Sequence record: PP925839.1
Strand: one strand, 5' to 3'
DNA length: 64,000 nt
Source of the DNA: Escherichia phage PinkRuby
The notes under the pieces were generated by a model. The model saw only the letters and a list, made by a program, of their open reading frames with translations, ran no database searches and had not been told where the DNA came from. The position numbers were made by a program, and so were the translations under genes. Below, one piece after another: positions 29,205 to 30,770 of this stretch (positions are counted from its first letter, which is position 1; each line of letters starts with the position of its first letter).

Positions 29205-29470
29205 TGTTCATCCTTTAGAGTTTGATTTACAGCTCTATTATAAATCAATTCATCATTAAGCTCAGGCAAAGACTTATGATATGTAGTTCTAACTTTATTT
29301 CCTTGCATCCAGTGCTTGACGTAAATGAAACCTTGCTCTACGCATTTTTTAAAAATTCGTTCGTCTTTTTGAGCTCGGAATTCTGGATTGCATCTAAAAA
29401 ATTGATTTACGTGACCGTAATCACGTGTAGTATTACCTTCATTTTCATAAATAGTGTGAACGACAAACAT
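29201..29470 (-). CDS. hypothetical protein (T4 30.1 position)
   Basis: 89-aa ORF with overlapping stop/start. Confidence 0.65.
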   Translation of the reverse strand: MFVVHTIYENEGNTTRDYGHVNQFFRCNPEFRAQKDERIFKKCVEQGFIYVKHWMQGNKVRTTYHKSLPELNDELIYNRAVNQTLKDEQ

Positions 29471-30309
29471 TAGAATGCTCCTTGGAAAATATTATCACCA
29501 CAAGTAGGTCTATTATACAAATACTCTATTCCACCAGGTTTAATATAGTTCCATGTCTGAAACGGATGTGTCTGATATGGATGATATAGATGATTATAAG
29601 GATTAAATCCAGGAGTTCTCCAGGTAGTGTTCCAACGAAAAGAATCATTTTTAATCATCTTTTCAATTATATCTTTTATAGCTTTTTCACTATCAAAACT
29701 TTCTTTATTTTCCTTTGGTGAAAAAAGCTTATTTTCTATATCATTCCATGTATAAACTCGCTGAGCAGTTTTTGGAATATTGTCACGCTCTCCTCGCGCC
29801 ATCCAATAAACAGGAACATTTAATATTTCACTCGCATGATCGCAGTGGTGAGCGAGATCGTCAATATAACAAATTACGTTATATTTCTCTTTTGCCTTTT
29901 TAAACAACTCTTCTTTTGAAGAATCATGACCACACATCATTACTTCTGAGAATGCACCAGGAAAAAGAGCATTCAAATTAAATTGACGATTCAACAGAGC
30001 GTCAATAGAATCACCCAATGCTGTAACAGCTACAAAATTATAATCTTCTTTTAATTTATTAATTACACACAGGGCATCTTTATACGGAGACAAATAACGA
30101 ATAAAATCTGAACGATTGTATTTTTCAATTAGCTTGACACCAAGTTCTTCATCACAATCAAAGAGTTTACCTGGAGAAATAAATTTCTCATCTTGGATCA
30201 TTTTTAAAATATGTTCTAACGGAAGATTATATTTCTGAGCAAAATAAGGAAGGCCTGATTGCCAGCTTAAACATACTCCATCAATATCAGTTAAAATAGT
30301 AGGCTTCAT
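29470..30309 (-). CDS. HAD-superfamily phosphatase-like protein (T4 30.2 position)
   Basis: 279 aa; N-terminal DIDGV resembles HAD motif I; C-terminal half unassigned. Confidence 0.65.
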   Translation of the reverse strand: MKPTILTDIDGVCLSWQSGLPYFAQKYNLPLEHILKMIQDEKFISPGKLFDCDEELGVKLIEKYNRSDFIRYLSPYKDALCVINKLKEDYNFVAVTALGDSIDALLNRQFNLNALFPGAFSEVMMCGHDSSKEELFKKAKEKYNVICYIDDLAHHCDHASEILNVPVYWMARGERDNIPKTAQRVYTWNDIENKLFSPKENKESFDSEKAIKDIIEKMIKNDSFRWNTTWRTPGFNPYNHLYHPYQTHPFQTWNYIKPGGIEYLYNRPTCGDNIFQGAF

Positions 30310-30770
30310 AGAGAGTCTCTTAATAGGTTTAACACATCAATAAATTCAGCTTCGGTTAATATTGTATCATCTTTTGTTAGACCACTAGCCATGCTGTGCT
30401 TCAAAACTTTTCCTTTCGAGGCTTGTAATGCATCGCGAAAGCCCCTGTTTTGGAACGCTGCTTCAAAATATGCATTTGTGTATAGCTCTTTCCACGCCGG
30501 GGAGTATCTTGAAAACGGAACTCCGAGCCAGAAGAGGGTCCCACGGTCCTGAGCTCTAGCATAAGCTCGTCCAGCTTGTTGGGCAGCAAGCCCGGATAAC
30601 CCAAATATACGACGTTGCTGTTCAACATTTTTCACCTTACACCCTTGGAGGAATCCTTCGAGACCTCCAAATTGGATACCATCCATAACAAAAGGCCATT
30701 GGGCGAAATTACTTAATGCGCATGATGGCCATCTAAAATTGCTTCTTATCTCTAGCTCAGACATTTTCAA
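30306..30770 (-). CDS. NADAR/YbiA-family (DUF1768-like) protein (T4 30.3 position)
   Basis: 154 aa; LSNFAQWPFVMDGIQF...LEGFLQGCKV resembles E. coli YbiA FSNFAAWPIKVDGKTW...SEHYFQAQKF (recalled). Confidence 0.6.
   Translation of the reverse strand: MKMSELEIRSNFRWPSCALSNFAQWPFVMDGIQFGGLEGFLQGCKVKNVEQQRRIFGLSGLAAQQAGRAYARAQDRGTLFWLGVPFSRYSPAWKELYTNAYFEAAFQNRGFRDALQASKGKVLKHSMASGLTKDDTILTEAEFIDVLNLLRDSL

Follow-up and report, generated by a model that had tools for sequence, protein, structure and literature searches.

Two adjacent minus-strand genes of Escherichia phage PinkRuby (sequence record PP925839.1) correspond to genes 30.3 and 30.2 of phage T4. They lie in a 64,000-nucleotide (nt) stretch that was analysed whole and is referred to hereafter as the window. 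The two genes very likely encode separate early accessory enzymes and belong to the tightly packed series of genes that lies between 31 and 30 in T4. They are co-transcribed and most likely have independent functions: AdfN (gp30.3) is directed against DarT1, and gp30.2 is a predicted phosphomonoesterase of the HAD (haloacid dehalogenase-like) superfamily. A first-pass annotation had described the same two overlapping open reading frames (ORFs), both of which are present on the minus strand, as a NADAR/YbiA-like protein and a HAD-like phosphatase that might form a nucleotide-processing pair. As shown below, both family assignments were sustained and the pairing was not, for the most part. PinkRuby is T4-like (Tequatrovirus). 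Over the 1.9 kb that surround the locus, the window shares 97-98% identity with many T4-like phages of Escherichia and Shigella, and the minus-strand order alt, alt.1, 30 (ligase), 30.1, 30.2, 30.3, 30.4 is the T4 order. Coordinates are collected in Table 1.

PinkRuby carries an intact allele of adfN

In vitro, the T4 protein cleaves ADP-ribose from guanine in DNA (PMC11125620); it received the name AdfN once it had been mapped genetically (Johannesman et al., Nat Commun 2025; PMC11825919). Deletion mutants of T4 and T2 that lack adfN form no plaques on hosts with DarTG1. Ectopic expression of T4 AdfN rescues RB69, a DarTG1-sensitive phage in which the protein ends 15 residues early and has lost the whole terminal helix (PMC11825919). 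In work published in 2024-2025, AdfN was found to be both necessary and sufficient against DarTG1. The substitutions E36A and K43A weaken T4 AdfN, and DarTG2, whose toxin DarT2 is thymine-specific, is unaffected by it (PMC11825919). The construct listed as 'T4 phage NADAR (gp30.3)' in Methods 4.2 of PMC11125620 spans residues 1-208, compared with 152 amino acids (aa) in the T4 annotation; it may represent a different phage protein or include tags.

PinkRuby gp30.3 is identical to T4 gp30.3 at 148 of 152 positions (97%), counted from the ATG at 30764. The four substitutions relative to T4 (A67S, F104I, R107K and M125I) are all conservative and none is at a known catalytic position. The length of 154 aa given in the first-pass annotation came from a mechanical TTG start at 30770, which is unlikely to be used because the published numbering of E36 and K43 fits only the ATG start. 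In an alignment of 43 diverse homologues E36 was invariant and K43 was conserved in at least 90%. Both residues are present in PinkRuby, inside the core peptide LSNFAQWPFVMDGIQFGGLEGFLQGCKV, which is encoded as the first-pass annotation quoted it. H123, likewise invariant among the homologues, lies in strand 120-123 of the structural model. Phage proteins of the gp30.3 type are recognised as a subfamily of the NADARs, defined by histidine in this last strand as opposed to glutamate in YbiA and aspartate in DarT1-linked NADARs (PMC11125620). The model also contains a C-terminal helix at 138-151, and residues 138-152 (EAEFIDVLNLLRDSL) are identical to T4.

Three lines of evidence place the protein among the NADARs. 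First, it scored 231.2 bits (E = 4e-69; cut-off 36) with the Pfam family PF08010 (Phage_30_3), over model positions 1-138 of 138. Second, a profile built from the 43 homologues and searched against 177,635 distinct PDB sequences had a single match, E. coli YbiA (E = 0.0022), in which the alignment fell on the SNF..P..DG...E.F.Q..K segment (YbiA residues 29-83). Third, the AlphaFold2 model was of high confidence (predicted local distance difference test (pLDDT) 93.1, predicted template modelling (TM) score 0.88), and a Foldseek search of the PDB gave as credible matches only 2b3w (YbiA), 8bau (PnNADAR from Phytophthora) and 8bat (the DarG1-type NADAR of Geobacter lovleyi), with probabilities of 0.99-1.00. 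The next-best match had a probability of 0.05 and was not credible. PF08719, the YbiA-like NADAR family against which the first-pass annotation had staked its assignment, gave no match even at E ≤ 1, and a precomputed match to it was present in one of 97 homologues (P0175). That outcome is misleading, since the family owns PF08010, and we did not count it as a refutation because its own Pfam model, the profile match to YbiA and the fold all link the protein to the NADARs. AdfN is in the NADAR superfamily and outside Pfam family PF08719. Searches of the PDB with the single sequences of AdfN and gp30.2 gave nothing useful, and NCBIfam and PADLOC had no matches for AdfN, gp30.2 or gp30.1.

The suggestion that this ORF serves counter-defence agrees with the Pfam and fold matches and with the T4 experiments, and was already known; to the finding published in 2024-2025 PinkRuby adds another intact allele. 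Of the DarT-type modifications, that of guanine by DarT1 is covered and that of thymine by DarT2 is not. On the strength of 97% identity to T4 AdfN, the PinkRuby protein is expected to hydrolyse ADP-ribose from guanine and to protect against DarTG1. It would break the linkage by which DarT1 attaches ADP-ribose to guanine in the DNA of the phage, and the unmodified guanine so restored would let replication proceed in DarTG1 cells. AdfN would in effect be a phage-borne orphan antitoxin resembling DarG1. No DarT toxin gene was found beside adfN, whose neighbours are 30.4 and 30.2, so the locus does not have the DarTG arrangement; adfN is an orphan antitoxin-like gene here, as published.

The first-pass annotation also left room for nucleotide salvage. 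In such a reading the NADAR ORF would be a YbiA-type N-glycosidase for intermediates of the riboflavin pathway or for soluble ADP-ribose derivatives. YbiA is indeed the best single match by both fold and sequence, and a 2022 comparative-genomics paper concluded that phage NADARs mainly target soluble ADP-ribose derivatives. However, where YbiA has a glutamate in its last strand, the PinkRuby protein has the phage-type histidine. In addition, T4 gp30.3 takes ADP-ribose off DNA in vitro, and resistance to DarTG1 in vivo depends on it. We consider a salvage role scarcely credible, as it is already contradicted by the published genetics.

The base composition of adfN sets it apart from its surroundings. 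Its G+C content is 44%, compared with 36% for the window, which puts it in the top 3% of 459-bp segments, and G+C at third codon positions is 0.36 compared with 0.22-0.26 in neighbouring genes. This composition is consistent with a separate origin of adfN by acquisition from a cellular source, and it fits the published view that phage NADARs were acquired in this way.

Gene 30.2 encodes a predicted HAD phosphatase with a C1 cap

PinkRuby gp30.2 is identical to T4 gp30.2 at 270 of 279 aligned positions. It matched phrog_420 (5e-93), a PHROG of unknown function, and had no Pfam match at E ≤ 1, including the NT5C family PF06941. The peptide DIDGV, which the first-pass annotation had read as HAD motif I, is encoded as quoted, and all four HAD motifs and the fold bear that reading out. 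In an alignment of 34 diverse homologues with identity down to 34%, D8, D10 and K132 were invariant, T96, D150 and D151 were present in at least 90%, and G11 of motif I was likewise conserved. The family also has invariant residues of its own (S18, Y64, S67, D78, R108, N111 and R172).

In the AlphaFold model, residues 1-190 (pLDDT mostly >93) form a Rossmann-like HAD core. Six helices at residues 16-86 make up a C1 cap inserted between strand 4-7 and strand 91-96, that is, between motifs I and II. A fold search with the model matched 105 HAD structures at E ≤ 1e-3. The gp30.2 profile had only one near-significant PDB match, mouse cdN (2jao, E = 0.021), in which the invariant W16 of gp30.2 was aligned with a phenylalanine of cdN. 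Weak matches to Pfam NT5C, for which the gathering score is 24.8 bits, were obtained with 5 of the 34 family members, the best at 1.2e-4. P0300, a distant relative that matches the gp30.2 profile at 4.6e-22, scored 29.4 bits over the full NT5C model, above that threshold. By the definition of Pfam gp30.2 is not an NT5C member; it belongs to a neighbouring clade. From its motifs and model we predict that gp30.2 has an intact active site and is a HAD phosphomonoesterase of a phage clade adjoining the NT5C nucleotidases. The HAD assignment of the first-pass annotation was correct at the superfamily level and is modestly new.

By established HAD enzymology, gp30.2 would be a Mg2+-dependent enzyme working through an aspartyl-phosphate intermediate, with D8 as the probable nucleophile, D10 as general acid/base, T96 and K132 contacting phosphate, and D150 and D151 holding the metal. 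An aspartate at the +2 position of motif I marks phosphotransferases as opposed to dehalogenases, and a C1 cap is typical of HAD enzymes with small-molecule substrates. Because gp30.2 has both, its substrate is probably small and nucleotide-like; the cap and the NT5C-type relatives point to something such as a (deoxy)nucleoside monophosphate ((d)NMP) and not a DNA end.

An exhaustive profile search of metagenomic protein space with gp30.2 found 1,475 cluster representatives. Relatives occur in about 1,400 deposited phage genomes, almost only of T4-type phages, and are labelled 'hypothetical' almost everywhere. Among 185,579 cellular genomes there was one match only, a protein 49% identical to gp30.2 and similar to relatives of the RB16/KP15 type, on a 178,077-bp contig of Flagellimonas marina (NZ_JBHSCL010000010.1; locus L162). 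This contig is probably a T4-like phage genome inside a bacterial assembly.

Three relatives carry the HAD domain in fusion with other sequences. P0014 (302 aa) joins the HAD core to a DUF3045 domain of the gp30.1 type. P0247 has an N-terminal domain with a GDLD motif that matches a PHROG labelled 'DNA polymerase' (1.7e-34), followed by the HAD domain, and in P0237 the HAD domain comes first and the sequence after it contains a GRHRT motif like that of ParB, which was spotted by eye only. These fusions are rare single cases and may be gene-calling artefacts; the last two were dropped as functional clues for that reason.

The remainder of gp30.2 is a variable tail. The model shows one helix (207-220) and then disorder over 225-279, with pLDDT <50 at 225-233 and 239-279. 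The tail is missing from 78 of 165 unique homologues (≤235 aa). Of the 87 long-tailed homologues, 26 carry a short motif with the family pattern G-[TG]-G-I-E-Y-[LW]-x-x-[QR]-P-T placed 4-10 residues from the C-terminus; the rest of the tails cannot be aligned. The PinkRuby version, GGIEYLYNRPT, occurs once in the window. The motif is probably a docking peptide by which the disordered tail would attach the enzyme to another protein. A gp45 clamp-binding motif was considered on the resemblance of IEYLY to the LDFLF-type motif and was dropped, since the family consensus GIEYLxxQPT loses the final aromatic residue. Presence of the motif does not follow adjacency to AdfN: in JS98-type phages adfN is coupled through ATGA to a gene for a tail-less HAD protein, and Klebsiella and Enterobacter phages keep the motif with adfN elsewhere.

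adfN and gene 30.2 are probably not a dedicated pair

The two genes overlap by ATGA, as had been noted from the ORFs. The 279-aa ORF had been called the upstream one; it is upstream only in plus-strand coordinates and lies downstream of the NADAR gene by transcription. This overlap is not specific to the pair because overlaps are generic in the gene string. In the T4 annotation there is an overlap of 1, 4 or 8 nt at each of seven successive junctions between 30.6 and alt.1, and six of the seven were read directly in the PinkRuby window.

Gene order in relatives was examined from both sides. The AdfN-anchored set consisted of 80 viral-contig loci in which a HAD gene was sought within 6 kb. It overlapped AdfN by 4 nt in 14 loci, all from closer T4 relatives, and lay 0.5-1.2 kb downstream in 8; one locus had only a weak HAD-profile match, upstream of AdfN, and 57 had no HAD gene within the 6 kb. 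The HAD-anchored set comprised 78 loci, which collapsed to 25 clusters at 70% identity. A T4-type ligase was found in 73 of the 78, usually abutting the HAD gene or with only 30.1 between, while AdfN was found in 35 and gene 30.1 in 23. The 4-nt overlap with adfN was present in 14 (16 when overlaps up to 16 nt are counted), again all closer T4 relatives. Counted by cluster, 21 of 25 had ligase no more than 600 bp from the HAD gene, while AdfN was within 1.5 kb upstream in 10 clusters and abutted the HAD gene in 3. The two locus sets shared at least eight large contigs, and in these AdfN and the HAD gene were about 50-70 kb apart, with the HAD gene still beside ligase. Ligase adjacency is seen in inverted order in L152, where the end of ligase at 6000 is followed directly by the start of the HAD gene at 6001. 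At the distant locus L164 ligase is about 0.7 kb upstream, and P0300, a more remote relative, has lost the linkage. At the level of whole genomes, co-occurrence of AdfN with the HAD gene is uninformative because both are near-universal in Straboviridae.

The conserved genomic partner of the HAD gene is DNA ligase, not AdfN, and adfN and 30.2 are probably not a dedicated pair. What stands of the proposed nucleotide-processing pair is that the two genes are expressed together in this lineage; the generic coupling, the wide separation in other phages and the conserved ligase neighbour make a weak case of the rest.

A functional module of adfN and 30.2 would nevertheless explain a peculiarity of T4 AdfN. 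The protein is fully active only in T-even infection: it rescues RB69, it does not rescue T5 or Bas25, nor does it protect uninfected cells, and an additional T-even protein has been proposed (PMC11825919). In such a module gp30.2 would be the factor that AdfN needs in vivo, for example by tethering AdfN through its tail to the phage DNA or the replisome, or by clearing a phosphorylated by-product of ADP-ribose release. The ATGA overlap in PinkRuby and closer T4 relatives, the nearby upstream AdfN in 10 of 25 clusters, the near-confinement of gp30.2 relatives to T4-type phages and the docking-like motif at the end of the tail all agree with this proposal. On the other side, coupling is a property of the whole gene string, most AdfN loci have no nearby HAD gene, and the genes are far apart on the large contigs just described. 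The tail motif comes and goes independently of AdfN adjacency. Cleavage by a NADAR releases ADP-ribose and leaves no phosphomonoester for a HAD phosphatase to act on. Purified AdfN strips ADP-ribose from DNA alone in vitro, and many other T-even-specific genes are equally good candidates for the factor. We therefore regard the module as quite improbable. In its most extended form, gp30.2 would be the missing T-even partner of AdfN, its tail peptide would bring it with AdfN and/or ligase to replicating DNA, and 30.3-30.2-30.1-30 would constitute a module for reversal of DNA lesions. This would account for T4 AdfN being effective only in T-even infection, and we judge it highly improbable.

Several observations weigh against two independent enzymes all the same. 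AdfN is near the HAD gene in 10 of 25 clusters that represent several distinct T4-like lineages, which is above random expectation and leaves room for some functional link between AdfN and gp30.2. Adjacency to ligase is kept under inverted order (L152, L157 and L164), and a free-nucleotide phosphatase does not explain this. Since full activity of T4 AdfN is confined to T-even infection, it may need a further T-even protein (PMC11825919). Finally, the PinkRuby alleles are known from sequence, and the evidence on function comes from the T4 and T2 alleles.

Candidate roles for gp30.2

The constancy of the ligase neighbour raises a second alternative, in which gp30.2 is a 3'-phosphatase for healing of DNA ends, like the HAD domain of polynucleotide kinase-phosphatase (PNKP), and prepares nicks for ligase. 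Ligase is not merely within 600 bp in 21 of 25 clusters; it often abuts the HAD gene (-4 to +9 nt), the adjacency survives inversion in L152, and ligase remains about 0.7 kb away in L164. One of the fusion proteins has a HAD part that weakly matches a PHROG labelled 'polynucleotide kinase' (5e-4), and the N-terminus of the same protein matches the 'DNA polymerase' PHROG. The model argues otherwise, as a large helical C1 cap encloses the gp30.2 active site, whereas HAD enzymes that work on macromolecular ends are, in a 2006 classification of the superfamily, reportedly capless as a rule. No PNKP structure was among the top fold matches listed, where small-molecule phosphatases dominate. T4 already has PseT for the 3'-phosphatase role. 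Moreover, the adjacency, which is lost in P0300, may be due simply to inheritance of the genes as a block. An end-healing function is improbable in our estimation.

A phosphatase acting on the dNMP pool, for counter-defence or for shaping of the pool, has somewhat better credentials. The model for such a role is T5 Dmp, which depletes dAMP and so blocks Kongming, a defence that signals through dITP and is triggered by phage dNMP kinases. The families nearest to gp30.2 are 5'(3')-deoxyribonucleotidases, and Dmp, a proven anti-Kongming dNMP phosphatase, has a HAD motif I (W-D22-L-D-G-T). T4 gene 1 encodes a dNMP kinase, and the early region in which 30.2 is found is rich in genes for host takeover and anti-defence (alt, adfN). 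Against these points, gp30.2 has no specific homology to Dmp beyond motif I (hhalign probability 1.6%), and T4 relies on recycled host dNMPs, so that a general dNMP phosphatase would be costly. A search of the literature on gp30.2, and on HAD or deoxyribonucleotidase function in T4-like phages, found no relevant publication, activity or phenotype. Neither the linkage to ligase nor the tail is explained by a dNMP phosphatase. We regard this role as possible, if rather unlikely.

A phosphomonoesterase that works independently of AdfN on a small nucleotide-like substrate thus remains our preferred description of gp30.2. Our analysis shows it to be NT5C-like, adjacent to ligase and, in many lineages, equipped with a docking-type tail. 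Knowledge of its substrate would give a conserved T4 gene a function. The substrate might also bear on the T-even factor for AdfN, and on whether nucleotide phosphatases take part in counter-defence in T4-like phages as Dmp does in T5.

Neighbouring genes and other features of the locus

The ligase and ADP-ribosyltransferase genes that the first-pass annotation had placed near the two ORFs are there (Table 1). In T4 there is a single alt gene, and an old duplication survives as the short remnants alt.-1 and alt.-2; in PinkRuby both Alt-type copies are full-length. Gene 30.1 shares 1 nt with 30.2 (TAATG) and ATGA with the ligase gene.

Table 1. Positions of adfN, gene 30.2 and associated features in the PinkRuby window.
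Feature	Position	Strand	Basis
adfN (T4 gene 30.3), 152 aa; predicted DNA ADP-ribosylglycohydrolase of the NADAR superfamily, gp30.3 subfamily	30306-30764	-	T4 orthology, Pfam, fold
Extra codons TTG AAA of the mechanical 154-aa ORF; probably untranslated	30765-30770	-	T4 annotation, published numbering
NADAR core motif LSNFAQWPFVMDGIQFGGLEGFLQGCKV	30633-30716	-	Translation checked
Catalytic E36 codon	30657-30659	-	Inside the core motif
Catalytic K43 codon	30636-30638	-	Inside the core motif
H123 codon, last beta-strand histidine typical of phage NADARs	30396-30398	-	Alignment, model
AdfN C-terminal helix EAEFIDVLNLLRDSL, intact	30309-30353	-	Model, identity to T4
ATGA overlap, adfN stop / gene 30.2 start	30306-30309	-	Direct reading
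Gene 30.2, 279 aa; predicted C1-capped HAD-superfamily phosphatase with disordered tail	29470-30309	-	T4 orthology, motifs, model
gp30.2 HAD core and helical C1 cap, aa 1-200	29710-30309	-	Motifs I-IV
Motif I, D8-I-D10-G-V (DIDGV)	30274-30288	-	Codons verified
Motif II, T96	30022-30024	-	Codons verified
Motif III, K132	29914-29916	-	Codons verified
Motif IV, D150-D151	29857-29862	-	Codons verified
gp30.2 variable C-terminal tail, aa 201-279	29473-29709	-	Model, homologue lengths
GGIEYLYNRPT, conserved C-terminal short motif of gp30.2	29503-29535	-	Homologue tails
Gene 30.1, DUF3045, 89 aa	29201-29470	-	Pfam PF11243 at 5.6e-63
Gene 30, ATP-dependent DNA ligase	27741-29204	-	482/487 identical to T4 ligase
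Tandem Alt-type ADP-ribosyltransferase paralogues	23349-25406 and 25410-27506	-	685 and 698 aa, 42% identical

An internal out-of-frame ORF annotated in T4, 30.3' (75 aa, 30401-30628, minus strand), is intact in PinkRuby. Its product is identical to that of T4 at 65 of 75 positions, compared with 148 of 152 for the overlapping 30.3 frame. This difference suggests that selection acts on the 30.3 frame and not on 30.3'.

A scan for promoters and terminators over 27000-34500 was little informative, as counts were not above those in shuffled sequence. From 30.6 to ligase it found no convincing terminator-like site, only a weak 5-bp stem inside 30.6 (31197-31180), and the scan is consistent with a single transcription unit. 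Upstream of the 30.x string there is a strong terminator-like hairpin on the minus strand (32376-32397; 9-bp stem with five G-C pairs and a T-run), and the region around it (32290-32770) contains only short overlapping ORFs. The hairpin may be a boundary of the transcription unit that holds adfN and 30.2.

Comparison with known systems

The structures most like gp30.2 are the mammalian 5'(3')-deoxyribonucleotidases cdN (cytosolic) and mdN (mitochondrial) and the bacterial protein 3bwv (NT5C, PF06941), which have the best root-mean-square deviations and target TM-scores among its fold matches. They share with gp30.2 the C1-capped HAD fold, a similar overall size, a DxDGV(L) motif I and an aromatic residue eight positions past the first aspartate. 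Identity is only 16-20%, however, and gp30.2 differs from them in having its own invariant residues and a disordered tail, present in many lineages, that carries a motif at its end. T5 Dmp resembles gp30.2 in being an early phage enzyme with a DxDG(T/V) motif I. It had no Pfam match and was rejected as a homologue on the hhalign result given above; it is a possible functional analogue.

YbiA (2b3w) is the best structural match to AdfN (E = 3e-5, TM 0.67) and shares with it the SNF...W/HP...DG...E.F.Q..K motif. The two differ in the last strand, where YbiA, which has a housekeeping, riboflavin-related role, has glutamate and AdfN has histidine. The DarG1-type NADARs, represented by the G. lovleyi protein (8bat), have the same fold (Foldseek probability 0.99) and the same chemistry of guanine de-ADP-ribosylation. 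They are linked to DarT and have aspartate in the last strand, whereas AdfN is an orphan with histidine, and identity is only about 16%. In uninfected cells T4 AdfN is no substitute for DarG1 (PMC11825919). The closest known protein is T4 AdfN itself, the orthologue of the PinkRuby protein, with which it has in common the length from the ATG, the place between 30.4 and 30.2, residues E36, K43 and H123, and an intact C-terminal helix.

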